NCBI GenBank assembly: GCA_966252055.1
Contig: CBINNO010000003.1
Span: 396 to 64,395, forward strand
Source of the DNA: an uncultured Rheinheimera sp.
GTDB taxonomy: Bacteria > Pseudomonadota > Gammaproteobacteria > Enterobacterales > Alteromonadaceae
Reading direction: 5' to 3'
Length of the DNA stretch: 64,000 bases
Both the position numbers and the translations under genes were made by a program. Shown here in pieces: positions 3,109-44,168 of the stretch (its first letter is position 1; each line of letters starts with the position of its first letter). The notes under the pieces were generated by a model that saw only the letters and a program-made list of their open reading frames with translations, was not told the origin of the DNA and made no database searches.

Positions 3109-3241
3109 CCGCAGTTTTTTTTGACGTGAGTTGCGATCGCATGCTGTATTTGTTCCTGAATTAGCAAGCGTCTGTATCCGTAGTCCCTGTTTGAATCATT
3201 GTCGGGTCAGGGCGGCGGTCAGCCTCGATGAGCGACACCCG

Positions 3242-7584: not shown

Positions 7585-7738
7585 AAAGCCACGGCGAAAA
7601 GTCAAATCTGCCGGTCATGTCCGCATAAAAATGCAGCCGGAATGAGATGAGTAGTGAGATGTGCATTGTGCGCCAGGCCGGTCCTGTCGCATTGCTTTAT
7701 TGTCATGTTGCCGGCGCCAGCAAGAAAGGGAGACTCGT

Positions 7739-8452
7739 GTGCGAATCAGCGCAATCAACAGCTTTTGCGTTTTACTGGTTGCTGTACTGTTCAGTCAGGA
7801 CTTACTGGCTGAATCTGTTCAGGTAAAAAGCCGTGTCGACGGCCCCGGCATGCTGGAGCCCGCGCTGGCGGTGGTTGAACCGGGCGAGGCACTGCATTTG
7901 TTGATCAAGCCGGAGCCCGGTTACCGGCTGCGGCAAATATCCGGTTGCAACGGTCAGTATCAGGCCGGCATTTTTATTGTTGAGAACCCCAAATACAGCT
8001 GTGTGGTGGAGGCCAGTTTTGTGCCGGACGATGCCAGACTGGTTTCGCCAGCCCCGACACAAACCACGGGCAGCTCTGTCATCCAACAAACGCAAAATCC
8101 GGGGGCGCTGGCAACCGCCAAGACCGCCAAAAAAGCCGGCCGGATGCTGAAGTTTATTCTGGTGGCAAACCAGGTCATGCAACAGGTCAGCGTGACCAGC
8201 CGGGTGATTGCGGGCCTCGGTACCGTGCTGCCTGCGGTGCAACAGCTGCAAAAAAATCAACCGGCCACAGTCGTCGCAACGCCGGCCGCTGGTTATGCCA
8301 TTCAAAGCATATCGGGCTGCGGTCAACAAAGCGCCATCAGCCCGCTGCTGATCCCGTCTGTCAGCGCCAATTGCGTGGTCGACGTGATTTTTGTCCAGCT
8401 GAAAAATGCCCTGTGGGACCAATTTAACTGGGATCAGGCGACCTGGGGTTAG
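7739..8452 (+). CDS. Secreted protein with two divergent InlB B-repeat-like beta domains and C-terminal LWDQFNWDQATWG motif (237 aa)
   Basis: GTG 7739 after AAGGGAG; signal peptide MRISAINSFCVLLVAVLFSQDLLA; two repeats of PxPGYxxxxISGC...CVVEASF/CVVDVIF; paralogue at 26819. Confidence 0.85.
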   Translation: MRISAINSFCVLLVAVLFSQDLLAESVQVKSRVDGPGMLEPALAVVEPGEALHLLIKPEPGYRLRQISGCNGQYQAGIFIVENPKYSCVVEASFVPDDARLVSPAPTQTTGSSVIQQTQNPGALATAKTAKKAGRMLKFILVANQVMQQVSVTSRVIAGLGTVLPAVQQLQKNQPATVVATPAAGYAIQSISGCGQQSAISPLLIPSVSANCVVDVIFVQLKNALWDQFNWDQATWG

Positions 8453-8506
8453 TCCCCGGTCTGCTCAGTCAGGCAACTGCATGTTCAAACAAAAGCTGCG
8501 TCCAGC

Positions 8507-8530
8507 GGTGTGCCGGCCTGCCGGCACACC
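8507..8530. other. Perfect intergenic inverted repeat (stem-loop)
   Basis: GGTGTGCCGG-CCTG-CCGGCACACC, 10-bp stem and no U-tract. More likely an mRNA-stabilising or processing hairpin inside the operon than a terminator. Confidence 0.55.
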
Positions 8531-8579
8531 ACAATGACTGGCAGCACAGCAAAGCGCAGAAAAAAGGAAGATATCAACG

Positions 8580-10466
8580 ATGACATACTGGGTAAAAAAG
8601 CTGGTTCTCGCTTTGGCTGTGACGGCTCCGGTCGCGCATGCCGCCAATCTGGTGCAGTTCAGTGCCGGCCAGCCAGCCAAAGCGGCGGAAGTGAATGCCA
8701 ATTTTAAAGCGCTGAATGATGAGTTGGCAGCCGCCAAAAATTTCAGCGACCTGACCGAGGCCCAAATCCAGGCGCTGAAAAATGCGGTCGGCGCCGGCGG
8801 GGTCATTGACGGGCTGCAGGTTGATTGTACCGAAGACCCGGCGGCTCTGGTCAATGTGATAGAGACTAAAGGCAGGCATAACCAGTTTATGCGCGTCACT
8901 ATTAAAGGTGACTGCCATGCAGTGATGACTACGCAGTTCCACGGCTTTAATCTGTTTATCAATGGCGATGAAGCGGGCGCCCGTCTGATCCCCGATCCTG
9001 ACGCGGTGCAAAAGTGGAATTTGCTGGGTGGTTTTAACGGCGGTCTCTATCTCAATAATCTGACGTTGTTGCCGCCATCTGACGCCGATGCCGTGCTGTT
9101 TTCCCGGTCGTCACAGGGCTCGTTGACCAATGTGACGATTGAAGGAGGCAGTAATGGCGTCGTAGTGCAGGCGACAGCGCAGGTCTATCTGACCAATGTC
9201 AAAATACGCAACACCAGCCAGACAGGCATCTCAGCTTATACCGGCGGTTCGCTGCGATTCACCGGCAACAGCGACAACAGTGCGCTGATTGAGACCCACT
9301 CAGGAATTGGCCTGTTAGTCGATCTGGCGGGCGCCAGTATGGCGAACACTGAAATTAAAGCGCCAGTCGCTTTGGAATTGCGTAACGGCGGAACCTTAGC
9401 AGTCAACTTTGGCCGTCAACTGATCCTGCAGGGCAGTACCAGAATGTTTACCGGCGGTCAGCTGAGTGCGCAGGATATCGCTGTGACGGGGTCAATTCTG
9501 ATGCGGCAGGCCTCGTTGTTTGCTGACAGAGCCACCATTGTCGGTAACACCCGGTTGTTCGATGGCGCACAGTTTACGGTCCTGAGTGGCTCCATGCGGG
9601 CAACGGACCCACCATCAGCAAATTACGATGAGCATATGGTACTGGAAGTATCGGGCGGTTCTCAGGCGACTTTAGGCCGGCATGCGACTCAGATGCAGCT
9701 CGATGTGACCGGCTATTTGGTATTGAACAATGCCCGGGTTTCAGCGCTGTGGACCCAGCTGAATACTGATTTAAACATGGAAGCTTCGTCATTTTCGATG
9801 GAAAAATCTAACTTTCTCGGGCTTGCGCGCGACGCCAACAATCCCTACCAGGCCAATCTGAGCAGTAACTCAACCTGGCGACTGTTTCAGTCCAATGTTT
9901 CGGCAGGCAAAGTGTTGCTGATGCAAAGCACTTTGAATATCGATGGCGAGAGCGGCAACAATAACTACGGTAATACCGCCAACACCTACTTCCAGCTGGC
10001 GATGGGCAGTTCGTTGAGAGCCGCCAATTGCAAAGGTAACAGTTACTTTAATCTGGAAGGCAGCAGTTTGCAGTTACTGGATTGTGATTTCACTGAATCC
10101 GTGGTGTCGGCACATACTGGCAGTAAAGCCCGGATTGACCGTTCGAAGATTGGCCTGGTGCATGTGGATGGCGGCAGTACCGCGGGTTTCTACCAGTCAA
10201 AACTGACAGGCGCAGGATTTACCGACTGGGGCGACCAAAATTACAACATCGGCGCCAATTCTATGATGTATCTGGATGGCTCATCGCTGACCGTGACCAA
10301 ACATTTTAACAACAACGGCGTGCTGCGTTTGCAAAATGCCAGCGTGGATATGAAAAACTCCACAGTGCAATGTTATGCAAACCGCGGCTTTATTGAATGG
10401 TGGTCCGCCACGGCTGCCAGCACTATCGGTGTGCTGAGCGGCTGTAATTCTGCCCCGGCACCTTAG
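8580..10466 (+). CDS. Secreted parallel beta-helix (pectin-lyase-fold-like) protein with N-terminal FSAGQPAKAAEVNANF motif, 628 aa
   Basis: SD AAGGAAG; signal peptide ending AHA; short coiled coil, then G/S/N-rich repeats (LTNVTIEGGSNGVVV, LTNVKIRNTSQTGISA) typical of right-handed beta-helices. Confidence 0.75.
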   Translation: MTYWVKKLVLALAVTAPVAHAANLVQFSAGQPAKAAEVNANFKALNDELAAAKNFSDLTEAQIQALKNAVGAGGVIDGLQVDCTEDPAALVNVIETKGRHNQFMRVTIKGDCHAVMTTQFHGFNLFINGDEAGARLIPDPDAVQKWNLLGGFNGGLYLNNLTLLPPSDADAVLFSRSSQGSLTNVTIEGGSNGVVVQATAQVYLTNVKIRNTSQTGISAYTGGSLRFTGNSDNSALIETHSGIGLLVDLAGASMANTEIKAPVALELRNGGTLAVNFGRQLILQGSTRMFTGGQLSAQDIAVTGSILMRQASLFADRATIVGNTRLFDGAQFTVLSGSMRATDPPSANYDEHMVLEVSGGSQATLGRHATQMQLDVTGYLVLNNARVSALWTQLNTDLNMEASSFSMEKSNFLGLARDANNPYQANLSSNSTWRLFQSNVSAGKVLLMQSTLNIDGESGNNNYGNTANTYFQLAMGSSLRAANCKGNSYFNLEGSSLQLLDCDFTESVVSAHTGSKARIDRSKIGLVHVDGGSTAGFYQSKLTGAGFTDWGDQNYNIGANSMMYLDGSSLTVTKHFNNNGVLRLQNASVDMKNSTVQCYANRGFIEWWSATAASTIGVLSGCNSAPAP

Positions 10467-10515
10467 CCAATCCACAGCCAACCACCGGTTGCCCTGCAGC
10501 CACAAGCAATCCCGC

Positions 10516-10537
10516 CATGGGCCTGTAAAGGCCCATG
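10516..10537 (+). terminator. Probable terminator or stabilising hairpin after 10466
   Basis: CATGGGCCT-GTAA-AGGCCCATG, 9-bp stem with GNRA loop; weak U-tract. Confidence 0.45.
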
Positions 10538-10618
10538 CATCTTCTGTACGGCTGTGCGTTTCGGCTATAGGGCCGATGTCGTCAGCAGTTGCACGACGAC
10601 GGGGCTGCAGCGCGCATC

Positions 10619-10683
10619 TTGCACAAAACTGTCGCCATCAGGCACGGATTTGTCGCAGCCGGAAACAGGTGGAATGTTAAATT
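10619..10683 (+). promoter_or_regulatory. Direct-repeat operator plus extended -10 box, copy C (upstream of lipase-SLH gene)
   Basis: TTGCACAAAAC-TGTCGC(10630)-N15-TGTCGCAGCC(10651), then TGT-TAAATT (10678-10683) 21 nt after the second hexamer. Confidence 0.7.
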
Positions 10684-10846
10684 AATGAGTGACTTACCTG
10701 AGTTGCTGTGGATTGCGCTATTCACAACAAGACGGGGACTTTCTGACTTTTCCCACGAAGTAACGCAACGGATGAGCTCAACTATGTCTGCGACTAACAA
10801 GAGTTTTCGTTTTACTGAATGTGCCCGATATGGCACACGGAACCCT

Positions 10847-13800
10847 ATGGGTATCACACACTTTTTTTTAAACGCGATCTTGTGGGTTTCACTGTTTCTC
10901 AGTGCATCGGTGCACGCGTCTTCAGTCAAAAATTTCCGAACCGACCTGATGTGTCCGGAAAATTTCCATGAGCAGTCTAATTTTCATTACGACGCGCAGG
11001 CCGCGAAGGTGCTTGCCGAATTCGCCCGGGATGTCTACGTCATTAAAAGCGAACAAACGTTAGCACAAAGCAAACTGGCGTTGGAAAAGCTGATGAATGG
11101 CCGCTATGCAAACGCATTGGTGCTGAACAGCCAAGATTTACAAGGTGATATGCAGGCTTTCGTCTGGGAAAATGATGACAAAATAATTGTATCTGTAAAA
11201 GGAACTGATGAGCTGATCGATTGGGAGTTTAATCTGACAAATTACAGAGTCCCGTTGAGCGTAGAAAACAAGAGCGTACCGGGAGTTCAGGTTCATATGG
11301 GTTTTAATTTTTATGCGGATCGACTCATTGAATTACTTCAAGCAACACAGCAAGGGCAACAGATACTCAACAGAATTTTGCTTTCTGAAAAAGATGTTTT
11401 TCTGACTGGTCACAGCCTCGGTGGCGCTGTCGTAACCTTGTTGGCGGCGAAATTTCGGGAAATGGGGGTGTCAAAGGGACGGCTGCAAGTTTATACCTTC
11501 GGAGCACCTGCAGTCGGTGACGATGCATTTGTAAGTCGTTACGAACCCTACTTTGCCACAGGCTTTAATATTTTCCGCGTGAGGAATCAGGATGATGTAG
11601 TCCCTTATGTCACTTACCTGGATATAGACAAACTCACAATCTCACGCTGTGCAGCGACATCCTTTAAGCCTGGTCATCCGGCGGCAAACTTTGTCAGATG
11701 CCTGGCAGGCAAGACTGCCATGTCGGTGTTTAAACATCGGTTCGAACAAATTGGTTTTCTGCGCGCTCACTCATCTGCAGTCGCGAATTACGGACAACAG
11801 TTGGATGCCCGGCAATCAACTGTGTTAAGACCTACGGACTGGAACGTGCTGAACATGCTGACCTCAGATCGGGTGTTTGAGGTCTTTGCCGAACATAGCA
11901 GTGTTTTATACGCCAGCCATGTGGCGCAGAATCATCAATTAAGCACAGCACCCGCCTGCAATATTGATGGAAGCGTCCAGCGCGCTCAACAAGCTTACGT
12001 ACCGACCGTTTTTCATTTTGGTCTGACCCGTTTGAAAAACAGCGAGGTGAAGCTCAGTGCGCCAGTCACGTTGCAAGCCGAATCTGCCACTTATGGTTCA
12101 ATGCGTATTAAACTCGGGCTACCACCATTAAAAGGCCTTTTTGTGACGACCACAAAAACAGTGGATCTGACAGGCGCGGGTATCGTGATTGAGGTCAAAG
12201 ATAAAGCCACTGGCAAAAAGTTTTACCGCCGTGATTTTACCGTGAGCGCAGCGACCTCGGATGAGCCATTACTGCCAGAATTTTTACCAGATAATTTGCC
12301 ACAGAGTTTTTATACCGAACGCACCGGTCAGCAGGATTTTGTTTTACAGATCACTGCATTCAATACCAAACATCTATTTGATAACGGCTCAGACACTTTT
12401 CACTGGCAGCAAGACATTCATCTGGAAGCAGATGACGTGGACTACTTGTGGCAATACCAGCCAACCCGCTTACGGTTTCAGGACAGCAGCAAAACGGACT
12501 GGGACAGCAGCCAACACATGCTGTCATTGCAACAAGGCGAAAAATTCTCAGTTTGTTTAAGCAACAGTCCGCGCCAACTGACTCAGGTCACCAATATCCA
12601 GTTAGTGGTTGATGTTGTCGGTGCGGGCAGAAGGATTACTTTTCAAGCGCCGAGCTATGATGATGCGACCGGTTGCATGGAGTTTACCGCCAGCGAAACG
12701 GGCAGATTTAAGTTGATCCGGGTGGATGCTGAGGTGTTTCGGGATGATTTAAATCAGTCTGTGTACACGACCTTGGATTATTTTTATAGGGGCTATGTTT
12801 CTGTTACGGGTTCGTTTCAGCAAGGGGTTGGCAAACTCCTTTTTCGTGATGACTTTAATGGCGCTGAGCGAGGTCCAAATCCGGAGCATTGGATTGCTTC
12901 AGGATATGATGTGGTTGTGTCTAATGGTCATTTAGGAATGTATGCCAATGTCACCGATAATACAGGTAGAGTTAAAAGTAAAATTTCAATTCCATCTGGA
13001 AAAATCAAGGTGACTATTAAGCATTATATGTCACCTGGGGGGAGTTATTTCTTTCCGAAATTATCTTTAGGTCTTAAGAATGGAACATATTTAGGTGCTA
13101 TGTTTATGAAATCAGATTATTTTGCAGATAATTGTGGGGATTATGGAAATGCAAATAAAATCTCGATTTATACATCTGAGAGTCACTGTAATTTTTATTA
13201 TGCAGTAAATTCTTCTGACTTTTACAATAAATGGGTGGAAACAACTCTTATATTCGATCCGGCAACAGGTCTGATACAGTTAGATCTCGGAAATGATAAG
13301 TCAATCGATTTTGAGGTAACTTTGTCGCCGGAGTATCGGGCGGATGTCGACCATATCTACATGGATGGATATGGATGGTGGACATTTCATCAGCATCTAA
13401 TTGACTGGATCACTGTAGAGGCAGGCTCGGAGTATGATAGTAGCATACCGACAACCACCTTCCTCTCCGAAAACCTGCCCGATGGCACTTATCAGCTGGG
13501 GGCCGCTACCAAACGCTGGCGTTTTAAAACAGCCGATGTGGCTGTTGCTGGCTTAAAAGCCGTGCGGGTCAGTGCGGATGCGGCGCTTGGTATTCAAACT
13601 GCCGAAATTCCGTTGGGCGATGTCGCGGCTAACAGCGAGTTTCTGGTCGAGTTGCCGCTGCAGGTTAGCCGTGGCAATCAGGCGGTGGCGCGTTCGGTGT
13701 GGAAATTGGTTGATGGTACTGGTAAAGACGTGCAGATCAGCAACAGTAAAACCAATACCTTCTGGCTGTCGCTGCGGACAAACAGGCCTCCCCAGTTTGC

Positions 13801-15634
13801 CGCCTTGCAAAAAACGGCACTGGGCGGTGAGGTCGGCAATCTGTTGCAATTACCTTTACAGGCGACAGATGCTGACGGCGACGCCCTGACTTTTTCAGTG
13901 GTATTCGGCGGTGGCAGCATTATTGATAAAGTCAGCCGCGTGAGCAACAAAGCCTGGCAGGGTAGCTTTGCGCAGGCGGGGGTACAGCCGCTACAGCTGG
14001 CCGTTTCGGACGGGCTGGAGCAGGATCTGATCAATATCGATGCGGTGATTTACACCGGTAGTGGTCTGGCGAACTTTTTTGCCGATGTGCAATATCCGGG
14101 CACTGACGATATCAACAGCGTTTACAGTGCCGTGCACTTCCTGGCTGGCAAAGGCATTGTGATGGGCGCATCGACACAGGCGGGTGAGCGATATTTTGAA
14201 CCTGCGCGCGCAGCCACTCAGGCGGAAGCTTTAAAAATGTTGTTGCTGGCAGCGCAGGAGCGTGGCTTTGTCCAGCTGCAGCAAGCTCCCTATATTCCTG
14301 AGCATTATCAGAACCAGATCAGCCAGAACGGCCAGCTGTTCGACTACAGCTGGGCGGCTGACTATGCCTACACAGCAGAGCAACTGGGCATGGTTGATAA
14401 CCTGCAGTTGTTCGAACCGGCGGCTTTGCTTAGCCGTGAACAGGCCGCGTACTGGCTGGAACAGTTGCTGGAACTGGAATCCCCGCTGGCGGTGCTCAAA
14501 GCGCGTGGTCTGACCGATCGTTATCAATTCAGCGATGCAACAGCTTTTGCGCAGCCAGCGCATTATCAGGCCGCTTTAAAAACGGCGTTGTTCGGTTACC
14601 TCGGGACTTTGGGACAGAATTTCCGGCCGGCAGATCCGATCAACCGCGGCGACTTTGCGGTGATTGCGGCCCGGGTGCTGCGCACGGCCACTGTTGTTGG
14701 CCTGACCAGCCAGCAAGTGCAGCTTGCCGAGCGCTTTGGCCAGCAGATGCCGGTGGTGAAGCACGGGCAAACGCTGCAAATCAATGGCGTGACCGGTTTG
14801 GCGGTGTCTGAAATTTCGCAGCAGGGCCAGCTGATTAAAGAGGAATGGCTGGACCCGGCGCAAAGCTACGTCAGAATTGGCATCACACTGGATGATGGTA
14901 CTGCACTCGGGACAGCCCGGATGATTGATCAGCTGGCGTCTAAGCCATTGCTGCTTAATACCAATAACCTGCAACTGACCCGCAGCAGCATGATTAATTT
15001 GATTGTGCTGCTGGAAAATACCCGTTCAGGCGTAATTAGCGCACAGTATTTGCCGCTGGCACTCGATTTTGCCGACAAAGACGGTGATGGACGCCGCGAT
15101 GATGTGGACGCTTTTCCAGAGGATAACAGGTACAGCCGTGACGCCAATAAAAATGGTGTGCCTGATGAAGTTGAAGATTTGTTGCGCGAGCTCGGCATTG
15201 ACGGAACTGCCAAGGCGACGGTCAATGGGGTGGCACAAAGTTATAGCCTGGCCTATGCCATCGCTTTTGGCCTGGCTTACGACAGAACCACGACAGGATT
15301 GCCGCAGGATAAAACGGCTCCGGTGATTCAGTTGCCGCCTGTATTGACCATTCAGACACCACACAGCGACGGCTTGCCAGCGACAAACTGGCAGCTGGCA
15401 AATTATCTGGCTGCGGTAAAGGCTGTGGATAATCTGGATTTGCATGTCAAGCTGAGCCATGACGCCCCGGCCCGCTTTGCCATAGGCCAGACCTTGCTGA
15501 CGTTCACCGCGACAGATCAGGCCGGCAATATTTCTAAAGCCACCGCCACCGTCACGCTGGAGCTGGTTGCGGCCAAACCGCGCAAATCAAGGATGATGAA
15601 AATTATCTTGCTGAGCCAACCGCAGTCGCCATAA
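10847..15634 (+). CDS. Large secreted class-3 lipase / NBR1-Ig-like / cadherin-like / 3xSLH / TSP3-like / HYR mosaic protein (about 1595 aa)
   Basis: Start moved to ATG 10847 (signal MGITHFFLNAILWVSLFLSASVHA). Lipase_3 motifs VHMGF, FLTGHSLGG, YTFGAPAVG, NQDDVVP, EHSSVLY. NBR1-like FLSENLPDGT...TKRWRF. QATDADGDALTFS. SLH-like FADV...FEPARAATQAE, FEPAALLSREQ, FRPADPINRGD. DKDGDGRRDDVDAFP. HYR DKTAPVI...TFTATDQAGN. Confidence 0.85.
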   Translation: MGITHFFLNAILWVSLFLSASVHASSVKNFRTDLMCPENFHEQSNFHYDAQAAKVLAEFARDVYVIKSEQTLAQSKLALEKLMNGRYANALVLNSQDLQGDMQAFVWENDDKIIVSVKGTDELIDWEFNLTNYRVPLSVENKSVPGVQVHMGFNFYADRLIELLQATQQGQQILNRILLSEKDVFLTGHSLGGAVVTLLAAKFREMGVSKGRLQVYTFGAPAVGDDAFVSRYEPYFATGFNIFRVRNQDDVVPYVTYLDIDKLTISRCAATSFKPGHPAANFVRCLAGKTAMSVFKHRFEQIGFLRAHSSAVANYGQQLDARQSTVLRPTDWNVLNMLTSDRVFEVFAEHSSVLYASHVAQNHQLSTAPACNIDGSVQRAQQAYVPTVFHFGLTRLKNSEVKLSAPVTLQAESATYGSMRIKLGLPPLKGLFVTTTKTVDLTGAGIVIEVKDKATGKKFYRRDFTVSAATSDEPLLPEFLPDNLPQSFYTERTGQQDFVLQITAFNTKHLFDNGSDTFHWQQDIHLEADDVDYLWQYQPTRLRFQDSSKTDWDSSQHMLSLQQGEKFSVCLSNSPRQLTQVTNIQLVVDVVGAGRRITFQAPSYDDATGCMEFTASETGRFKLIRVDAEVFRDDLNQSVYTTLDYFYRGYVSVTGSFQQGVGKLLFRDDFNGAERGPNPEHWIASGYDVVVSNGHLGMYANVTDNTGRVKSKISIPSGKIKVTIKHYMSPGGSYFFPKLSLGLKNGTYLGAMFMKSDYFADNCGDYGNANKISIYTSESHCNFYYAVNSSDFYNKWVETTLIFDPATGLIQLDLGNDKSIDFEVTLSPEYRADVDHIYMDGYGWWTFHQHLIDWITVEAGSEYDSSIPTTTFLSENLPDGTYQLGAATKRWRFKTADVAVAGLKAVRVSADAALGIQTAEIPLGDVAANSEFLVELPLQVSRGNQAVARSVWKLVDGTGKDVQISNSKTNTFWLSLRTNRPPQFAALQKTALGGEVGNLLQLPLQATDADGDALTFSVVFGGGSIIDKVSRVSNKAWQGSFAQAGVQPLQLAVSDGLEQDLINIDAVIYTGSGLANFFADVQYPGTDDINSVYSAVHFLAGKGIVMGASTQAGERYFEPARAATQAEALKMLLLAAQERGFVQLQQAPYIPEHYQNQISQNGQLFDYSWAADYAYTAEQLGMVDNLQLFEPAALLSREQAAYWLEQLLELESPLAVLKARGLTDRYQFSDATAFAQPAHYQAALKTALFGYLGTLGQNFRPADPINRGDFAVIAARVLRTATVVGLTSQQVQLAERFGQQMPVVKHGQTLQINGVTGLAVSEISQQGQLIKEEWLDPAQSYVRIGITLDDGTALGTARMIDQLASKPLLLNTNNLQLTRSSMINLIVLLENTRSGVISAQYLPLALDFADKDGDGRRDDVDAFPEDNRYSRDANKNGVPDEVEDLLRELGIDGTAKATVNGVAQSYSLAYAIAFGLAYDRTTTGLPQDKTAPVIQLPPVLTIQTPHSDGLPATNWQLANYLAAVKAVDNLDLHVKLSHDAPARFAIGQTLLTFTATDQAGNISKATATVTLELVAAKPRKSRMMKIILLSQPQSP

Positions 15635-15680
15635 GAAAGGGAAAGCACCACTTGTGCCAGTCCTGGTCAGCCACACTGTG

Positions 15681-15709
15681 CCGGACCTTGTTGTGGGTTC
15701 AAGGTCCGG
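15681..15709. other. Intergenic inverted repeat
   Basis: CCGGACCTTG-N9-CAAGGTCCGG, 10-bp stem downstream of the lipase gene; no clear U-tract. Confidence 0.4.
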
Positions 15710-15848
15710 ACTCTGATGCCAAACCAGGGCTTAATGGGTACAATACAGGGCGCTGTTGTATCCATTCCTATGATTTTATTGTAAATTATCGGTGTTTAAC
15801 TATCAGGTGTCAGCCTGATCATGGAATGTTGTGCAAGGAAGGGTATCT

Positions 15849-19688: not shown

Positions 19689-19707
19689 CAAGGTTCTTTT
19701 TCAAAAC

Positions 19708-19740
19708 AAAACCGCGCATCACAAGCGCGGTTTTTTATTT
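19708..19740. terminator. Bidirectional Rho-independent terminator
   Basis: AAAACCGCGC-ATCACAA-GCGCGGTTTT followed by TTATTT, between convergent genes ending at 19688 (+) and 19786 (-). Confidence 0.9.
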
Positions 19741-19785
19741 TTTTGGGCGACGTCTGGCGCTGCGGTTTTCAACTGAGGAACACAA

Positions 19786-22479
19786 CTAGTCTTTTACGGG
19801 CGCCGTGGCTTGTATTGGCTCTGCTTCCTTTGTCGTTGCCTGATCTTTGGAGGGCGCTGTGCTGTGGACAAAGCTGCTTGCCTGCTGTGCCAGCAGCACC
19901 CACCACGGCAGGCCTTTTGATACTGGTTTCAGGCCGGCAGGGTCAATCCAGAACCGGACTTTGATGACCTGAGGGACGCCACCCTGCACTGTCACGGTCA
20001 GAGTCAGTGTCAGCCAGCCACTGACGCCTCTGGCCGGCTGGAAAATAAGCTGGCCGTTGCTGACACTGAGACGGCCGTATTGGCTGTCGCCAGCGTCGGC
20101 AAAACTGGCGGCGGTGAGCACGGCATCGTTGGTCATGCGAAAGCGCAAAGCTGAGTCCGCGCTGCAAAGTTCCGGCAGCGCTATATTTGTGACAGGCAGT
20201 GTAAGGCGTAGTGTTTCCAGCGCCTCGCAACTTAAATGGCTGTTGCCAGTCAGGTCTAACTGATATAGCTGAGTCATTGGATGTAACAGAGACAAGTCCT
20301 GAATGGCAGAATACTGTAGCCCAAGAGACAACAGTTCTTTATTGAGGTTGCTCAGTAAGGTGAAATCGGTCACCCCGCTGCCGATGAGCGAAAAATAGCG
20401 CAGTGTTGGCAATCTGGTCTGGATCTGGTTCAGCGACATGAAGCCGGCGTGGCGGATCTCAAGCTGCCTCAGTTTGTCCAGATGGTGGAGGGGGCTATAG
20501 TCCTGCAGGGCCCGGTTATCTGCTGCAATGAGCAACAGATGCTGCAAATTGCTGGCAGCTGCAATACCTTCCAGGCTGTCCAGCGTTGCTGAATCTATGA
20601 TCAGGCTGGTAAGGCTGGCCGGCTGAGGCAGCAACGCCAGCACTTGTCCGGCATTGCGAATGGCCTGCCCTGATAGTTCTAAACTGCTGATTTGGGCCGG
20701 CAGCCTGACGCCATGCAGCTGCTCCGGGGTAGCGGGTTGCAGTGCCAGAGCAATTGTTTTACTGCCCAGCGTATGCAGCGGTTTGTAGTCAGTAATATGC
20801 GAGTTGCCCAGCAGGCCGATATTTTCAACATTGAGCTGCGAAATATTCGTCAGGTCATTGATTTGATTGTCCGATAACACGACTTGTCGAAGCCAGGGAA
20901 ATGCTGTGGTGATCTGGGCGAAACTGGCTTGTGTCAGCAGATTTCCGGGTAAAATAAGATTTTGCACCACCCTGCCGCTCAAGGCCTGTATCGTCTGATC
21001 TGTCAGCCCTTGTCTGTGCAATGCCAGGAAAGTCAGGTCCTGCAATTGCGCAAACTCTGCCAGGTTAAGCGCCGGACTGGGGGTTTCTTGGTTACCGCTG
21101 ACGAACAGCCGCGTCAGTTTGCTCAGATAGCGGATCCCTTGCCAGTTATGCACGTTGCCCTGACAGGACAGCGCATAGACCGAGTTGAGTCTTTTATAAC
21201 CCTTCTCTGCCAGGCACTGGCGCAGCACGGGGTCTGGTACTGTGGCGGCACTGAGCAGTTTTTGCTCGACACCACAGGTCTGCGGCAGCCTGAAAGCCGC
21301 ATGATTGGGGTGATTGCGAAGTGTTTCAATTTGTGCACAGTCGATCGTCACTTGCTCGCTGAGATCTAATCGCTTCCATTGCGCCGCCATGTTGACGATA
21401 TCACCGATATCCACCACGGTGGCATCCTCATGCCAAAAGGCGGGGATGTACAAATATTTCAGCGTCGCTGGCAGGACAAAATCCGGAAACTTTGTCGGCA
21501 GCAGGGCCCCACTGATATCCAAAGACTCCAGCTTGTTCAAATCTCCCAATATGCTGAAATCGCTGACTTTATTGAGCCCTTTGGCAACTAAATATTTCAG
21601 ATTAGGCAGTAAAGTTAAGGCTTGCAGGTCGGCAATTTCGGTAAAGCTGATGGTCAGCTGTATTAATTCCGTTGGGGCCGGCAATGCATTGATCAGTGTG
21701 CTCAGGTCGCTGATCGGGTTGTTAGGCAGCTCAAGGTACCACAGATTCGCCGGCAGTTTTGCGCCAGTTAACGACGTGATGTTGGCGTTGTCTAGCGTGA
21801 TTGAGATGAGGTTGGGCGGGAAAGTGATGGCCAGTTCGGCCTGGTCGATAAACAAGTCGGTGATGCTCAGGCCCCGAAGATGACTCAGCTGTTCAATCCG
21901 CTTGAGGTTGTAGAGACGCAGGCCGTACTGAGGTGAAGTTTTTAGGAGATAGAGGTACTTCAGGTTAGTCAGATGCTCAATACCGCTCAAATCGACCACG
22001 TTTAAACATGCCAGCGTGGTGATGTTTTCCAGCAATTCAATATTTGTGTTGCTGATGCATTCGCGCAGTTCAGGGTCAGCAAAGTCAACATCTGCCAGCG
22101 TGGTGCTGCTGGTGTGGCCGGGCTGGGCCATTGATTCAGTCAATGGTTCTTGCAGTGCCGGCAAAGGTTTGGCGTGCAGCTCAGTGACATGGCGGTCAAA
22201 TCCGGGCAGGCTGGCGGCAAGGTCCGCATAGAGCCGTGCAGAGGGCCGCCAGTGCGCCATGCTGCGTGAAGCCGCTTTGGCATTTGTTGTCGTCAGGTCA
22301 GCGAAATTGCTGGTTGTGGTATCGACCTGCGCAAAGTAGTCCGGTAAGCCGGGTTGAGACACCGCCTGCCACCAGACCAGCGGCTCAGCCGGAGCATGCC
22401 TGGCAAAGACGGCCATACTGAACAAGCCGGCGCACATGATGCCGGTGAAGATAGCGCTGCGGATAACCCTTTGATTCAT
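19786..22479 (-). CDS. Secreted multi-block internalin-like LRR protein with C-terminal Ig/cadherin-like domain and GLPWWV motif (about 897 aa)
   Basis: Start moved to ATG 22479 (SD CAGGGAG; signal MNQRVIRSAIFTGIMCAGLFSMAVFA). Caps VDFADPELRECI and VPDPVLRQCL; LRRs (LSGIEHLTNLKYLYL). Paralogous to the 1-2913 protein. Confidence 0.9.
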   Translation of the reverse strand: MNQRVIRSAIFTGIMCAGLFSMAVFARHAPAEPLVWWQAVSQPGLPDYFAQVDTTTSNFADLTTTNAKAASRSMAHWRPSARLYADLAASLPGFDRHVTELHAKPLPALQEPLTESMAQPGHTSSTTLADVDFADPELRECISNTNIELLENITTLACLNVVDLSGIEHLTNLKYLYLLKTSPQYGLRLYNLKRIEQLSHLRGLSITDLFIDQAELAITFPPNLISITLDNANITSLTGAKLPANLWYLELPNNPISDLSTLINALPAPTELIQLTISFTEIADLQALTLLPNLKYLVAKGLNKVSDFSILGDLNKLESLDISGALLPTKFPDFVLPATLKYLYIPAFWHEDATVVDIGDIVNMAAQWKRLDLSEQVTIDCAQIETLRNHPNHAAFRLPQTCGVEQKLLSAATVPDPVLRQCLAEKGYKRLNSVYALSCQGNVHNWQGIRYLSKLTRLFVSGNQETPSPALNLAEFAQLQDLTFLALHRQGLTDQTIQALSGRVVQNLILPGNLLTQASFAQITTAFPWLRQVVLSDNQINDLTNISQLNVENIGLLGNSHITDYKPLHTLGSKTIALALQPATPEQLHGVRLPAQISSLELSGQAIRNAGQVLALLPQPASLTSLIIDSATLDSLEGIAAASNLQHLLLIAADNRALQDYSPLHHLDKLRQLEIRHAGFMSLNQIQTRLPTLRYFSLIGSGVTDFTLLSNLNKELLSLGLQYSAIQDLSLLHPMTQLYQLDLTGNSHLSCEALETLRLTLPVTNIALPELCSADSALRFRMTNDAVLTAASFADAGDSQYGRLSVSNGQLIFQPARGVSGWLTLTLTVTVQGGVPQVIKVRFWIDPAGLKPVSKGLPWWVLLAQQASSFVHSTAPSKDQATTKEAEPIQATAPVKD

Positions 22480-22716
22480 CACGCGGTGAACTCCCTGTAC
22501 ATTAGTTTTTGTCCTCAGGTTTTGTCTGCTGGTTGCCCGGATGGCCCTGCTGAAAACACGGGCAGGAACAGGCCCCATGCCCACATTGTTGCTGTTTGAG
22601 AAACGTCCGTCAAAGCTTTTGTCTACTGCCAAAACGACCTTCAAAAAACCTTGCACAACCCCTGAACAAAGCCGCCAGCCGGGTGCATGACGCATCCCGG
22701 CGCCCGTTCAGGCTGC

Positions 22717-25700
22717 TTATTGCTGTGGCTGCGCCATTAACAGCAGTTGCAGCAGTCGGCTGTCTTTTTTGTTCAGCAGGATTTCAACGCTCGATTGCGC
22801 TGTGGCCTGATTGCCGCTGCTGTCGGTGCTGCTGAAATGGACTACTGTCACCCCGGGCAGGAACTTTTCCGGTGCGTCGTGGCTTACCACGACTGAGCTG
22901 TCAAAGTTATCGCTGGCGGTCACGCTGTTTAAAAACTGCTGGATACGCGGGTCTGTGCGGGCAATACCACTGCGGCCCGCTTTCAGCTGCAGCGGTGCCG
23001 GTACCTGGATCACCGGCGCGCTTTGATCGGTCAGATAAATCACCAGACTGGCGGCCGAGGTGTACCCATTTTGGTCGGTCGCTTCGAACAGCAGGATATT
23101 TTTACCGGGTTTGAGCCGGGCCGGCGTATGGACCTGACGAATAGTCAGTGGCTGATTAGCGAAATAGTCATGGGCCTTCAATTGACTTATCAGTTGTTGC
23201 ACCCGGCTGTCGGACAGACTCAGACCGTCTGGCCCTGGCGCAGGCAAAGTCACGGCTGCAGGGACGGTAAATTTAGGGCCGTAGGCGAAATTAACCAGCA
23301 TATAGACAGTACGGCTGGTGCTGTTGCCGGCCTGGTCGGTGGCGCTGAGCGTCAGCAGATGGGCGCCAGCGGCCCAGGGAGACTGATTGCTAAAACTGAC
23401 GTCAATATTGGCTGTCACCAAATCGGCCACGGTAAATTGCTCGATAAACTGATAGAACTCATAACTGTCGCTGGTGATCCCTGCGGTACTGTAGGCCGTT
23501 GCGACTGAGACGTCCGGCCCATTGATCACGGGCGCTGTAGTGTCCTGCACCCGTAACGTCTGATAGGCCACTGCAGTGTTATTGTCAAAATCGGTAGCCC
23601 GCCAATCAATCTGATGATCGCCGACTGCGTAGCTGCCTGTGGCAGTGCTCCAGGCCGGGATGCTGCCATCTTTGGCATCGGTGGCGGTGGGAGCAGTCAG
23701 CACAGCCTTAGTCTGAGGCCCGGTTGCTTCCATAGTGATGATGGGCAATGCCGCAAACACCGGTGCTGTGGTGTCGCCGGACTTACAACGTGAAGGCAGC
23801 TGGAAGCTGCGCAGCGGTATCAAAGCCCGCCAGGTGCGGTATGCGGAATCGCAGTCCAGCTGGCTGGCCTGGCTCAGGTAAACGTATTGCAGCCTGGTCA
23901 GCGTACTGAGTCCGTCGACAGTCAGCGGTACGCTGCTGCCAATCTGCAGATGGGTTAAATTGACCAGCGAGCTCAGTGGATTGAGGTCTGACAGATTGGA
24001 GGTTGTGATAGTCAAATTGGTCAGATTGTTCATTCCGCTCAGCCAGGTGGCCTGTTGCAGGTTGTCAGGGGATTGATAGTGATGACTGATATAAAGAACC
24101 CGCAGGTTGCTCAGTTGTGACAGTGGCTGGTAGCTGGCAATTTTGGTGTACTGGAGTTCGAGTTCCCGCAGGGCCGGCAAAGCAGCCAGCGGAGTCAGGT
24201 CGTTAAGTGTGTAGTTGTATAAGGTCAGCGCTGTCAATTCAGGCAGATTCGCCAGCCAGCTCAACGCAATACTGGCAGTGCCGGACAGCGTGACGTCCTG
24301 CAGTTGACGCAATGATGCCAGCGGGCTGAAATCGCTGATATTTTGACCGGAAAGATACAACCGGCTGATGTTGCTGAACTGTTCAAGGCCGGCTAACGAA
24401 CTGATACTGCCCAGTCCCGCGCAGTTATTGCCATATGAATAGGTACCAAACTCGGTCAGCTGCCCGGCGTAATGCATGGTTGGGTTTGCTGACTTAATCT
24501 GCTGCAGGCATTGTTTTAACACCGGATCTGTTACCTGCAGCAAGGCATCGCTGAAAGTCACCAGATTGCCCGGCTGATATTGACGGGCCAAACCATGCCG
24601 GATGGCATTGATGGCATAAGTTGCATCAGCGCCGTGTTCGTCATGCCGGTCGATACCACAAGGCTGGCCTTTGCATTGTTTGGCCGGGTTGGAGAACTGG
24701 TAGATTTTGCTCGCAGAAAAATAGCTTTCATAGGCCATCACCGTCGCAAAGCTGCGATCGACACCATAACCGCGGGCAAACGGCATGGAATAGCCAGTGT
24801 CGCCCTGGCGTTCTGAGTGTGCCAGCCCCATGTTGTGACCGGCTTCGTGGGCTAATACATAGTCTGAACAGGTGATATGCGTCAGACTGACCATGTAGTT
24901 TTTATTGTAGGAAAAACCACCGTTATTTGGACCGGTGGCGTACCAGCCCAAGCCGCAAATATTCGCGCTGGTCATCGGCGTCAGTAATGCGACCATATCG
25001 GCGCCTGCTTCGTAACGCCATTTATCCAGATCGGCAAAGGCGCCGGTTTTATCGGTCATTTCATCCAGCTGTGCATGACTCTCAGTGGCACTTAACGCAA
25101 CTTCCCGCATGGCGGCCAGCCGCATTTCGACAAAAACACCGCTGTCGCGATAAATCTGATTACTGACACTGACCAGGTGATAGAGCCGGGTTGCGATGTC
25201 GCCATTGTAAATGGCGGCCGCGGCAGGGCTGTACAGCATCAAAAAATCGATAGTGGCGATACTCTCATCGGTCAGCGGTGGATAAGTCTCGCCAGCCTGC
25301 ACTTGCTCATTGGCCTGAGGCTGCTTTTTCAGCTCAGGCGGCACCAATGCATCATCCTGACTAAAATCAAGGTCTTGCTGTAAGGTTGCTTCGGAAAAAA
25401 GTCTGGCTTCGCTATGCATGCCACGCACCACATAAGTGCCGTCGGCACTGACGATACGGGCAAAAAAACCTTTGGGTCCACGGGTGATCACCACCGGATA
25501 CTGTTCGCCATCCTGACGGATGTAACCGCTGAGGCTGACAATCTCTTTGGTATATTGTTTGACCGTAGTTATTTGCACTGCGACAGGGCCGCCGGGCAGG
25601 GCGAGCTGAACAGATTCAGCCGGTTGTACGGCGTCAATGGCGCTCAGGTCGAGGTTCAGTGACAGACCCTGTTGCTGAGCTTGCAGATGCCGCTCTGCCA

Positions 25701-25842
25701 GCGACTGATTGTCTGCACCTGTGCTTTGCTGGCCGAATGATGTGTCCTGCGCCGGTGTGATTTGCCAGAGTGTCTGACTGGCCCAGACACTCTGGCTGAC
25801 GACCGCCAGCCACATTATTGTCCCAGATAAAAATTTCAGCAT
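22717..25842 (-). CDS. Secreted M12B/reprolysin-like zinc metalloprotease fused to LRR block and three HYR-like domains (about 1041 aa)
   Basis: Start moved to ATG 25842 (SD AAAAGGAG; MLKFLSGTIMWLAVVSQSVWA). Pro-region; metzincin HEAGHNMGLAHS with Met-turn FATVMAY; LRR cap VTDPVLKQCL; DTTAPV...ATD repeats. Confidence 0.9.
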   Translation of the reverse strand: MLKFLSGTIMWLAVVSQSVWASQTLWQITPAQDTSFGQQSTGADNQSLAERHLQAQQQGLSLNLDLSAIDAVQPAESVQLALPGGPVAVQITTVKQYTKEIVSLSGYIRQDGEQYPVVITRGPKGFFARIVSADGTYVVRGMHSEARLFSEATLQQDLDFSQDDALVPPELKKQPQANEQVQAGETYPPLTDESIATIDFLMLYSPAAAAIYNGDIATRLYHLVSVSNQIYRDSGVFVEMRLAAMREVALSATESHAQLDEMTDKTGAFADLDKWRYEAGADMVALLTPMTSANICGLGWYATGPNNGGFSYNKNYMVSLTHITCSDYVLAHEAGHNMGLAHSERQGDTGYSMPFARGYGVDRSFATVMAYESYFSASKIYQFSNPAKQCKGQPCGIDRHDEHGADATYAINAIRHGLARQYQPGNLVTFSDALLQVTDPVLKQCLQQIKSANPTMHYAGQLTEFGTYSYGNNCAGLGSISSLAGLEQFSNISRLYLSGQNISDFSPLASLRQLQDVTLSGTASIALSWLANLPELTALTLYNYTLNDLTPLAALPALRELELQYTKIASYQPLSQLSNLRVLYISHHYQSPDNLQQATWLSGMNNLTNLTITTSNLSDLNPLSSLVNLTHLQIGSSVPLTVDGLSTLTRLQYVYLSQASQLDCDSAYRTWRALIPLRSFQLPSRCKSGDTTAPVFAALPIITMEATGPQTKAVLTAPTATDAKDGSIPAWSTATGSYAVGDHQIDWRATDFDNNTAVAYQTLRVQDTTAPVINGPDVSVATAYSTAGITSDSYEFYQFIEQFTVADLVTANIDVSFSNQSPWAAGAHLLTLSATDQAGNSTSRTVYMLVNFAYGPKFTVPAAVTLPAPGPDGLSLSDSRVQQLISQLKAHDYFANQPLTIRQVHTPARLKPGKNILLFEATDQNGYTSAASLVIYLTDQSAPVIQVPAPLQLKAGRSGIARTDPRIQQFLNSVTASDNFDSSVVVSHDAPEKFLPGVTVVHFSSTDSSGNQATAQSSVEILLNKKDSRLLQLLLMAQPQQ

Positions 25843-26156
25843 GATGCAGACTCCTTTTAATATGCCGGAACTGCTGCGCCTGTCAGCGCCGGTTCTGGTG
25901 GGCGAAAGCCCCTCAAACCCACTGGTGCAGCAGAGAAATACAGGCTTATGCTCGCTTATTTGTCTGTTGTTGTCATCTGATAAACAGTGGCCGCCGCGAC
26001 AGCGCAGATTCTGAGTGACAAGCATGGCAAAATCGGCGAGCATTCGCCGGCGTTGCGGGCCGTTTGGCCGCCTTATCTGCCCGGGTTGGGGCAGGCAATG
26101 GTGCTTGGCAGGTGGCCGCAATGGCAGAGCTGACATTGTATGACAGGGAGCTGAGG

Positions 26157-26690
26157 ATGAACGCCAAAACGATAATTGTTGGGATTTTCCTGTTAATGAG
26201 CGGATTCGTGCTGTATTTCTGGACTGCCGGATCACAGCAAGCGCTGGTGGCGCCAGTGCCTGTGTCCACGCCGGCGGCCAGCCCGGTGACTGAATCCTTG
26301 CCGGCAGTGTTACCCGGCGCTGCCGAGCCGTCAGCTGCGCCTGTCAGTGAGGTTGCGGCATTGCCTGACTCCACCGGAGCGCTGTTGTCACCGGACGATG
26401 AACCGCTGCAGCAAGACAGTGGTCCGGAAATTAATATAGGCCCGTTGATTGATCCGGAACACGATGATCCGAATTTGGGGTTGCCTCCATCTGAACCCAA
26501 AGAAATTGGCGAGTTGCTCGACCCGGAAACTTATATTCCGCCGGCACCGGCCAACGAAAAAGAAATCAATATTGGTCCGCTGTTGCCGCCACCCGGTGAA
26601 GACAGCGACCCCTGGCCTGAAGCCGCGCCGGAACAACCAAAAGAAATTGGCAAACCGATCGATGCCGGAGCTGAAGTGGAGCAACTTTAG
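26157..26690 (+). CDS. Membrane-anchored Pro/acidic low-complexity protein with IG-x-(I/L)-DP repeats (177 aa)
   Basis: ATG 26157 after GAGG; N-terminal hydrophobic anchor IIVGIFLLMSGFVLYFW; repeats EINIGPLIDPE, PKEIGELLDPE, EINIGPLLPPP, PKEIGKPIDA. Confidence 0.8.
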   Translation: MNAKTIIVGIFLLMSGFVLYFWTAGSQQALVAPVPVSTPAASPVTESLPAVLPGAAEPSAAPVSEVAALPDSTGALLSPDDEPLQQDSGPEINIGPLIDPEHDDPNLGLPPSEPKEIGELLDPETYIPPAPANEKEINIGPLLPPPGEDSDPWPEAAPEQPKEIGKPIDAGAEVEQL

Positions 26691-26818
26691 CTCTGAGTTC
26701 TGCGCCAGTGCAGCTGTCCTCAGCAACAGAACGGCCTGATTTGTATTCGGCCTTGCCCTTGACTACGCTTGCCTGACACGAGCGGGCGGAAAAAAGCACT
26801 GTGGTCGGCGGAGGGGTT

Positions 26819-27520
26819 ATGCGGGTATCTGTTTCATGTCTGCTGTGGCTGGGCATGGTGGCGTCACCGCTGGCAGTGAGTCAGGAAATACAGGTCAACA
26901 GCCGGGTCGAAGGCAGTGGTGAACTGCTCCCGGCTCGCGCCACGCTGGTGAGCGGCGAAGTGCTGCATGTGGCGATCAAAGCCGCTCCCGGATACCGGCT
27001 CAAACAAATCCATGGCTGCGATGGCCAGTATCAGGACAGCATCTTTATCACCGGCGCCGTGCGCTACTCCTGTGTAATTCAGGCCACTTTTGTGCCAGAT
27101 GCCGACAGGCTGCCGTCTGCGACTAACCCCGCGACCGAGGTCCAAACGTCACGTCCTCTGTCGTCTGACGCGCAGACGATGGCAGCAAGCAGCACACGGA
27201 AAAGCAATATCATCAAGTTTATCCTGGTGGCCCATCAGGTAAGCAAGATGGTGACAGTGACGGCCGGGATAAGCGCTGGCCTTGGCAGTATTACTCCGGT
27301 GCAACAGACGCTGCTGAAAGGCGAAAGTGCCAGCCTGCTGGTAACTCCTGCTGCGGGTCAGCGGGTGCTCAGCGTGACAGGCTGTGGCCTCAATACCAGC
27401 AACAGTGGTGTGCTGCAGACTCCTGCGCTCAGTGTGAACTGCCATATTTCAGTTAGTTTTGCCGCATTGGTGCAGGGGCTGTGGGACCAGTTCAACTGGG
27501 ATCAGGGCGCCTGGCAGTAA
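26819..27520 (+). CDS. Secreted two-domain InlB B-repeat-like protein with C-terminal LWDQFNWDQGAWQ (233 aa); paralogue of 7739-8452
   Basis: ATG 26819 after GGAGGGG; collinear similarity with the 7739 protein (QVNSRVEGSG vs QVKSRVDGPG; PGYRLKQIHGCDGQYQ vs PGYRLRQISGCNGQYQ). Confidence 0.85.
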   Translation: MRVSVSCLLWLGMVASPLAVSQEIQVNSRVEGSGELLPARATLVSGEVLHVAIKAAPGYRLKQIHGCDGQYQDSIFITGAVRYSCVIQATFVPDADRLPSATNPATEVQTSRPLSSDAQTMAASSTRKSNIIKFILVAHQVSKMVTVTAGISAGLGSITPVQQTLLKGESASLLVTPAAGQRVLSVTGCGLNTSNSGVLQTPALSVNCHISVSFAALVQGLWDQFNWDQGAWQ

Positions 27521-44131: not shown

Positions 44132-44168
44132 TTGCGTGCAGTCCTGGATTTCAATCAATTTCTGTCAG

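Follow-up and report, generated by a model that had tools for sequence, protein, structure and literature searches.

A pair of secreted proteins with a tryptophan-rich C terminus

The window analyzed here is a 64,000-nucleotide (nt) stretch of contig CBINNO010000003.1 from an uncultured Rheinheimera sp. (assembly GCA_966252055.1, positions 396 to 64,395 of the forward strand). It carries two genes, g7739 and g26819, whose small products both start with a Sec-type signal peptide and end in the tryptophan (Trp)-rich sequence LWDQFNWDQxxW, and a third gene, g8580, directly downstream of the first, whose product is the candidate binding partner of that C-terminal tail. The forward-strand gene g7739 (7739 to 8452) begins with GTG and encodes a proposed adaptor of 237 residues, laid out as a signal peptide (residues 1 to 24), a B-repeat-like domain (27 to 96), a disordered linker (101 to 138), a second domain (149 to 220), and the Trp tail. 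Its counterpart, g26819 (26819 to 27520, forward strand), encodes 233 residues. A preliminary description of this DNA, made from the sequence alone, had called the two proteins collinear paralogues, and an end-to-end BLASTP alignment at 43% identity (E = 9e-68) bears this out. Five genes (g8580, g10589, g15831, g19786, and g22717) lie between them.

The structure of g7739 was predicted with AlphaFold2 from a nine-sequence alignment. In the model, a signal helix is followed by two beta domains (27 to 96 and 149 to 220) with a predicted local distance difference test (pLDDT) score of about 90; the linker at 101 to 138 is disordered, and the tail (222 to 237) is of low confidence, with a pLDDT of about 50. 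A low-confidence helix at residues 133 to 147 covers an internal hydrophobic tag, MLKFILVANQV / GRMLKFILVANQV (GRMLKFILVANQVMQ; 8135 to 8179, forward strand), whose counterpart in g26819 is KSNIIKFILVAHQV (27200 to 27241, forward strand).

Both beta domains of about 70 residues in g7739 and g26819 are homologous to the repeats of multi-B-repeat proteins. An exhaustive phmmer search with g7739 returned 1,037 representatives at E ≤ 0.001, many of them multi-B-repeat proteins, and in many of these matches between 5 and 61 matched stretches mapped to residues 26 to 96 and 143 to 217 of the query. A Pfam scan with PF18998 (Flg_new_2, InlB B-repeat) gave scores of 17.8 and 17.9 bits, below the gathering cutoff of 23.6; homologues P0006 and P0007 carry a precomputed match to the same family. 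Foldseek searches with g7739 gave only weak matches to MucBP/B-domain stalk domains of Gram-positive adhesins. Close homologues of the small two-domain proteins are scarce, with eight among 5.8 billion clustered proteins, and g7739 matched 0 families of the PHROG library.

Conservation and distribution of the C-terminal tail

The tail of g7739, LWDQFNWDQATWG followed by the stop codon, is the proposed docking peptide and occupies positions 8411 to 8452 of the forward strand (L225 to G237 plus stop), exactly where it had previously been placed; that of g26819 is LWDQFNWDQGAWQ plus stop (27479 to 27520, forward strand). A peptide corresponding to the tail reads AVWDQFNWDQANWQ. The W-x5-W-x4-W spacing given in the preliminary description has to be corrected, because the Trp residues stand at 226, 231, and 236 and thus form W-x4-W-x4-W, two WDQxx pentads and a final W. 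The tail had also been named the most conserved part of these proteins. This is true between the two paralogues, where it is the best 13-mer (11/13 identical versus 43% overall), but across 13-column windows of the nine-sequence alignment its conservation of 0.77 is second to the 0.80 of QISGCNGQYQAGI. The invariant tail residues in the g7739 family are W226, D227, F229, W231, D232, Q233, and W236.

Patterns derived from the tail were scanned against one genome per species and against Joint Genome Institute (JGI) metagenomes. They recovered loci in Alcanivorax species, a gammaproteobacterial metagenome-assembled genome, and many marine contigs. The tail is thus conserved well beyond the source genome, contrary to what the preliminary description had named as a refuting outcome. 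Together with loci fetched afterwards through homologues of g8580, there are 53 tail-bearing open reading frames (ORFs) representing 28 distinct DNA versions. The consensus is [AL]-h-W-[DNG]-x-F-[NK]-W-D-[QEN]-A-x-W-x-stop, and in 53/53 tail ORFs a single residue (Q, G, A, or S) separates the last Trp from the stop codon. The representative proteins P0056, P0081, P0094, and P0141, for example, end in AVWDQFNWD[QE]ANWQ. Both or all synonymous codons are used for the D, F, N, Q, and A residues of the tail, and every degenerate position varies without a change of residue. It is thus the peptide, not a DNA element, that is under selection, and this codon variation rules out chance or conservation at the DNA level (e.g., a recombination site) as the origin of the motif.

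The carriers of the tail differ widely. Those of the window clade are small secreted proteins that have two domains and contain the internal tag. Others are lipoproteins of 680 to 760 residues, which combine a lipobox (..IAGCGGGG) and an N-terminal domain with a helical region and multiple B-repeats, and yet others are lipoproteins in which the tail follows thrombospondin-type-3 repeats and for which NCBIfam gives an MtsC-like match (E = 8e-29). Lipoprotein carriers overall span 450 to 1,460 residues, one tail carrier has at least 1,462, and a G/P-rich spacer (..FVEDGSGPTAAVW..) often precedes the tail in the lipoproteins. Between carriers that are 22 to 26% identical or unrelated, the tail is the sole segment kept. 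Since it is placed after G/P-rich spacers and unrelated domains, the tail is an autonomous C-terminal module; these flexible linkers and unrelated domains, together with the pLDDT of about 50, give it the appearance of a short docking peptide rather than a folded domain. The tail had been proposed to be a folded recognition or polymerization element. Recognition agrees with the co-occurrence of a partner gene described below, but the pLDDT speaks against a folded element, and no evidence of polymerization was found.

Pfam, NCBIfam, and PHROG scans of the tail proteins, their partners, and the Alcanivorax stalks returned no family for the tail, for the partner N terminus, or for the hydrophobic tags, and a full-text literature search for the tail motif strings found no paper.

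Metagenomes from rhizosphere, soil, freshwater, wetland, and wastewater contained sequences nearly identical to positions 7600 to 10500 of the window. Judging from these matches, the source organism is a non-marine and widespread gammaproteobacterium, whereas the Alcanivorax carriers are marine.

A partner gene with a conserved N terminus

The product of g8580 (8580 to 10466, forward strand) has a signal peptide (residues 1 to 21), a conserved N-terminal motif, and a right-handed beta-helix body (about 75 to 620). Its mature N terminus is ANLVQFSAGQPAKAAEVNANFKALNDEL. The proposed docking region, from A22 to about A70 (ANLVQFSAGQPAKAAEVNANFKALNDELAAAKNFSDLTEAQIQALKNA; 8643 to 8789, forward strand), is the best-conserved part of the family, yet it has a low pLDDT in the monomer model. 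AlphaFold2 modeled the body (75 to 620) with a pLDDT above 90 as a right-handed parallel beta-helix. Its top Foldseek match in the PDB was 8egr_A, a chain of the upper-tail entry of phage Andhra (E = 1.4e-3, TMq 0.41), and next came PL6 (alginate) lyases and the HK620 tailspike; matches in BFVD were to neck appendage proteins and tailspikes. The Pfam Beta_helix model scored 23.1 bits on g8580, below its cutoff.

The proteins encoded downstream of the tail share a plan with g8580: a signal peptide, the motif F-x-A-G-x-P-A-x-A-x-(E)V(N/D)-x-NF-x-x-L (hereafter VNxNF), a coiled-coil-like stretch, and a variable body. The body is either the beta-helix, in a protein of 628 residues, or one of at least four types of domains of 215 to 250 residues, and the N-terminal 40 residues are the best conserved. 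The Alcanivorax partners follow ..F[ST]A[GDN][ST]PA.A.[EG]V[ND].NF.ALI.AINDN..RI.ALE.. with a variable body of 150 to 190 residues. Trimeric coiled coils may carry Asn in their core, and the heptad pattern with a core Asn in the partner sequences (AINDNxxRIxxLE) suggests such a trimeric coiled coil. Searching with g8580 itself identified 10 homologues, which are 35 to 55% identical and again most conserved in their N-terminal 40 residues; a profile of the partner N terminus returned seven short fragments from the 5.8-billion-protein database.

The preliminary description had suggested checking whether the tail co-occurs with proteins with an AxEVNxNF motif, and the outcome is strongly positive: a partner is the next gene downstream in 41/43 loci with readable downstream DNA. 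Counted uniformly, 48 tail ORFs divide into 41 with a partner directly downstream, five at a contig end, and two without a partner. The strict partner motif was found in approximately 2/860 ORFs of the same loci outside the true partners. A partner gene follows the tail-bearing lipoprotein gene in every Alcanivorax locus and is the only constant neighbor in otherwise varied surroundings; the metagenome loci are arranged likewise. Intergenic gaps are about 26 to 70 nt in marine and Alcanivorax loci (∼40 nt in Alcanivorax) and 127 nt in the window. The association also holds in the reverse direction, as every g8580 homologue on a longer contig shares its locus with a small protein bearing the tail (L051, L060, L061/62, and L063/64); the tail gene is directly upstream of the homologue in L051 and directly downstream in L063. 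Thus, two short elements co-occur, a C-terminal 13-mer and an N-terminal 40-mer, each on interchangeable bodies. At L040 (AZIG01007343.1) and L041, two tail-bearing thrombospondin-type-3 lipoprotein genes stand in tandem, each with its own VNxNF partner, which is a duplication of the whole two-gene module; in the uniform count, one contig, L040, has two such tandem pairs.

The gap between g7739 and g8580 contains a GC-rich, perfect 10-bp inverted repeat with no T-tract after it (GGTGTGCCGG-cctg-CCGGCACACC; 8508 to 8531, forward strand), which was read directly from the sequence and is absent from the terminator-scan listing. It is possibly a partial terminator or an mRNA stabilizer and may determine how many adaptor transcripts are made per partner transcript. 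A terminator-like hairpin detected by the terminator scan 3′ of g8580 (10516 to 10537, forward strand) is likely the end of a g7739-g8580 operon. RNA contigs bearing on cotranscription of the two genes were short and came from runs of doubtful RNA origin, and none spans positions 8453 to 8579.

A phage tail protein family with the same motif

The tail-pattern scans also matched viral contigs, in which WD[QN]FNWD[QE]ANW is internal, about 50 to 55 residues before the C terminus of proteins of 515 to 680 residues. Most of these proteins belong to phrog_5107. The 11-mer WDQFNWDQANW occurs, identically or nearly so, in L042, L043, L045, L050, and L055, and only 17 columns are invariant in a 10-member alignment of the phrog_5107 family, W460, W465, and W470 among them. 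By tblastn, the phrog_5107-type family was found in 62 deposited phage genomes, all at <60% identity, including Brucella Tb-like phages, Myxococcus phage Mx8, Sulfitobacter, Rhizobium, and Bradyrhizobium phages, and EBPR podovirus 2. A degenerate motif is present in the same register in Mx8 (TWDGSTWDVDVW), a Bradyrhizobium phage (LWDSAIWDAAIW), a Rhizobium phage (VWDVGLWDDAIW), and a Brucella phage (EWGTGVWGQSVW).

In these phages, the head genes are followed by a tail tubular A-like or SU10_adaptor-like gene and then by the motif gene, which at most loci examined lies upstream of virion, tail fiber, or tail collar genes. In L044, the S74-type fiber encoded downstream starts ...ATTLAKAADVNLIVNTLFNGL, resembling the bacterial partner motif. 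Depositors have labeled the motif protein “phage stabilization protein,” “tubular tail B protein,” “neck structural protein,” or “amidase.” The family phrog_5107 itself carries the label “amidase / lysis” (loci L058, which is Mx8 p52, L065, L066, and L067; contigs L042 to L050 and L053 to L057). From the position of its genes, phrog_5107 looks like a structural tail protein in the nozzle or tail tubular B position, and the “amidase / lysis” label looks misleading. In phage SU10, the nozzle hexamer (gp17) carries the short tail fibers (PMC9509320).

Since the same W-x4-W-x4-W occurs at the fiber-bearing nozzle position, the bacterial pair looks like a phage fiber attachment interface reused by bacteria. 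We put forward, as a tentative proposal, that bacteria took over this interface, consisting of the W-pentad peptide of the nozzle-like protein and the N-terminal segment by which a fiber or tailspike attaches, as a general plug and socket, in which any stalk ending in WDxFNWDxANW-x could receive any VNxNF tip.

A proposed docking pair and alternative explanations

Because the motif is conserved, modular, selected at the protein level, and accompanied by a partner gene, we read the tail as a docking peptide. Specifically, we propose, with a probability of roughly 55%, that the last 13 residues are a modular docking peptide that tethers an exported partner via its conserved N-terminal segment and that g7739, and possibly g26819, hold g8580 in this way. 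The C-terminal 13-mer would dock onto the VNxNF segment of the partner; the stalk or adaptor would provide reach and anchoring, and the partner would provide activity. In the window, g7739, possibly along with g26819, would carry the tailspike-like beta-helix of g8580, and the internal hydrophobic tag would keep the adaptor in the envelope, a part that an N-terminal lipid anchor would play in Alcanivorax-type relatives. Of this proposal, the direct contact between tail and partner, its stoichiometry, the anchoring role of the tag, and the place of the complex in the cell are inferred. In the models, the low pLDDT of both elements beside confidently predicted domains is what would be expected of segments that fold on binding or oligomerization.

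Several observations weigh against docking. The two tail ORFs without an adjacent partner are those of g26819 and L052, and the next gene downstream of g26819 is a glycosyltransferase gene at 27616; g26819 may share g8580 or may serve an acidic Pro-rich protein encoded upstream of it. In L060 and L061, the tail protein and the g8580 homologue are encoded 7 to 9 kb apart. Covariation between tail and partner lends no help, as the two main partner types can occur with an identical tail sequence and what signal is left tracks the splits between clades. Many tail loci come from closely related Alcanivorax genomes, which reduces the sample to approximately six independent lineages or architectures. 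On the phage side, neither sequence nor profile searches found PDB relatives of the W-motif protein, and its assignment to the nozzle rests on gene order and the depositors' labels.

The alternative that fares best, although we consider it unlikely, is that the small proteins link C-terminally tagged passengers to the cell surface or to the g8580 fiber, the passenger tags docking on the B-repeat domains or pairing with the internal tag. The passengers would be the four large proteins encoded between the paralogues: a class-3 lipase with SLH domains (g10589; 10589 to 15634, forward strand; C-terminal tag KSRMMKIILLSQPQSP at 15584 to 15634), a PPC/B-repeat protein (g15831; 15831 to 19688, forward strand; C-terminal tag RTGLPWWVLTAAQPAN at 19638 to 19688), a leucine-rich repeat (LRR) protein (g19786; 19786 to 22695, reverse strand; tag SKGLPWWVLLAQQA at 19879 to 19920, with 30 more residues after it), and a metzincin-LRR-HYR protein (g22717; 22717 to 26235, reverse strand; C-terminal tag DSRLLQLLLMAQPQQ at 22717 to 22764). 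Their tags come in two flavors, hhKIILLSQPQ / LLQLLLMAQPQ and GLPWWVL..AQ, contain no transmembrane (TM) helix, match no NCBIfam or Pfam model, and may represent an undescribed sorting or anchoring tag; variants occur in relatives, KLPWWIYTQAVN in L051 (902 to 3451) and RGIPIWVILGAGTQA in L061 (4363 to 9138). These two loci also repeat the island arrangement in which tagged proteins, a small adaptor, and a beta-helix protein stand together, which speaks for a linking role. A profile built from the four large proteins' tags only, and scored against approximately 19,200 other positions, ranked the internal segments of the two small proteins first and second. The likeness that had been noted between internal and passenger tags thus stands, but it is modest, with scores of 16.2 and 14.0 that barely exceed the background maximum of 13.2.

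The Alcanivorax-type carriers bear more directly on this alternative. They have an N-terminal lipobox and lack both the internal tag and tagged neighbors, and they still keep the tail-partner pair; the small adaptors have the internal tag and no lipobox. Because the lipobox takes the place of the tag, the tag is better read as the adaptors' own anchor than as a site for binding cargo, which suggests an anchoring device common to the adaptors and the large tagged exoproteins. The adaptor role that the preliminary description had given the small proteins, as links for tagged passengers, is not supported; an anchor of their own fits better.

A further and somewhat less probable alternative is that the tail is a Trp-rich anchor for a polysaccharide, lipopolysaccharide, or outer-membrane interface, a target that could be shared with a phage nozzle touching the host envelope. 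Sugar-binding faces typically have such a W/D/Q/N composition, the island borders on a Kps-type capsule locus and an exopolysaccharide cluster, and g8580 homologues occur in polysaccharide loci. The Alcanivorax loci, however, lie outside polysaccharide clusters, 13 residues are few for an autonomous glycan-binding unit, and a glycan target would leave the conserved N terminus of the neighboring gene product unexplained. We find it improbable, too, that the tail is a C-terminal signal for sorting, secretion, or processing, with the downstream protein as a cosubstrate or helper. Such a signal would account for the extreme C-terminal position with its invariable single residue past the last Trp and for the fact that all carriers are exported. 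However, the tail is rich in W, D, Q, N, and F, contains no sorting motif, TM segment, or basic cluster, and matches no NCBIfam model; no cognate sorting or processing enzyme was found in the window or in the ORF listings of the tail-locus flanks, and no gene for a sortase or other conserved machinery recurs in the varied Alcanivorax neighborhoods. Moreover, phage virion proteins, which undergo no export, carry this motif internally. Finally, the tail comes right after the last strand of the small proteins, but it is highly improbable that it is a mere final strand or helix of the preceding B-repeat domain, given that it also follows thrombospondin-type-3 repeats and G/P-rich linkers, has a low pLDDT beside a confident domain, and is all that distant or unrelated carriers have in common.

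Comparison with known systems

The proposed docking pair would be closest in function to the attachment of fibers to the tails of short-tailed phages, closest as a concept to cohesin-dockerin pairing, and in architecture it recalls the Bdellovibrio MAT fibers. In short-tailed phages, a platform protein (phrog_5107 family) carries W-x4-W-x4-W, and fiber or beta-helix proteins combine a conserved N-terminal region for attachment with bodies that can be exchanged; T7 gp12/gp17 and P22 gp10/gp9 are further cases of fibers or tailspikes attached to a tail platform. The body of g8580 likewise resembles phage appendages and tailspikes. The phage motif, however, lies inside a virion protein of about 520 residues, whereas the bacterial one is a free C-terminal 13-mer on secreted proteins or lipoproteins. 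No other phage gene is near the bacterial carriers, and g7739 is not a full-length homologue of phrog_5107, in keeping with its lack of PHROG matches.

Cohesin-dockerin pairs similarly place two short modules on separate exported proteins with interchangeable bodies, one carrier being anchored to the cell. There is no relation in sequence or fold: the dockerin has a duplicated 22-residue Ca-binding loop-helix, whereas the tail is a peptide of 13 residues for which a Pfam search found no dockerin match. The polarity also differs, as the putative docking peptide is here on the anchored stalk. The conserved N-terminal region of Bdellovibrio MAT fibers is proposed to bind an unidentified cell-surface element (PMC10769870). 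These fibers share with the partners a signal peptide, a conserved N terminus, and variable adhesive tips of phage-like architecture; they differ in that their N-terminal domain is beta-rich and about 130 residues long, compared with a motif of about 40 residues plus a helix here, and in that no neighboring gene has been described as their dedicated anchor.

InlB B-repeat (PF18998) stalks resemble the domains of g7739 and g26819 and many Alcanivorax stalks, but the Trp tail and its partner occur in no described B-repeat protein, and the tail is also found on bodies without B-repeats. With PEP-CTERM, GlyGly-CTERM, and LPXTG signals, the tail shares only a short conserved element at the extreme C terminus of exported proteins, lacking their TM helix, basic cluster, and cognate sortase. 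The LPWWVL/LLLxAQPQ tags of the neighboring proteins fit this comparison better than the Trp tail does, and no known model matches either.

If the tail binds the partner N terminus, the two would make up a docking pair not described before, modular and very small, that serves envelope or surface assembly in Gammaproteobacteria. Exchange across genomes is clear for both the stalks (B-repeat, thrombospondin-type-3, or small adaptor) and the tips (beta-helix enzyme or adhesin, or small beta domains). Docking of this kind would provide a role for a set of lipoproteins, so far “hypothetical,” of Alcanivorax, an oil-degrading genus, a hypothesis for the fiber attachment site in Mx8-like, Brucella Tb-like, and roseophage-like podophages, a widespread group, and a minimal, genetically portable tag of 13 residues for protein display in Gram-negative envelopes. 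In the window, it would tie a tailspike-like beta-helix to an island that combines capsule and exopolysaccharide genes with genes for several large tagged exoproteins.

Genomic surroundings of the pair

Upstream of g7739 lies a gene for a hybrid histidine kinase/AraC regulator (3242 to 7354). The preceding region (1 to 3241) appeared to be gene free and had no Rfam match, but this gap is an artifact of the ORF listing, as a reverse-strand gene for an LRR protein of at least 970 residues with a signal peptide (MNKQVVAVSLLLLSLTATA) occupies positions 1 to about 2950 and runs off the start of the window. This LRR protein is probably another passenger of the island.

Ahead of g26819, a forward-strand gene (26157 to 26690) encodes the acidic Pro-rich repeat protein mentioned above (EINIGPLIDPE...KEIGELLDPETY), which has an N-terminal TM helix. 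Similar proteins are encoded at L002:1373-1957, L060:19994-20521, L061:12444-12995, and L063:9940-10912, and in the window (g26819), L002, and L060 the gene is directly upstream of that for the small W-tail protein. The acidic protein may be the actual neighbor-partner of g26819. The complex may sit on the cell surface; given this inner-membrane-anchored acidic protein upstream and the Sec or lipoprotein signals on all components, a periplasmic scaffold like those of alginate-type polysaccharide machines would also fit.

Another small gene, for a secreted Cys-containing protein of about 120 to 130 residues (..YGGCIALINFDIKK..NGFCMVTRAEIR), occurs beside g8580 homologues (L060:19382-19750, reverse strand; L061:9222-9611 and 11841-12236; L063:9352-9705, reverse strand); a regex search of the window gave no match to it.

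From 27616 downstream, the window contains an exopolysaccharide cluster rich in glycosyltransferase genes and then a Kps-type capsule export set, consisting of KpsC-like (41681), KpsD/Wza-like (44109), KpsM (45862), KpsT (46644), KpsE (47303), and KpsS (48381) genes. With these clusters alongside, g8580 could be a polysaccharide-active enzyme or an adhesin. The Kps genes are followed by genes for a short-chain dehydrogenase/reductase (SDR), a sulfatase-family protein, an enzyme resembling 8-amino-7-oxononanoate synthase (AONS) or serine palmitoyltransferase, and a type I polyketide synthase (PKS) of 2,483 residues (KS-AT-DH-ER-KR-ACP), the capsule/lipid region as a whole spanning 41681 to 51965 and, on the reverse strand, 52128 to 60919. 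This region may direct the synthesis of a capsule-linked lipid, perhaps an amino- or sulfonolipid.

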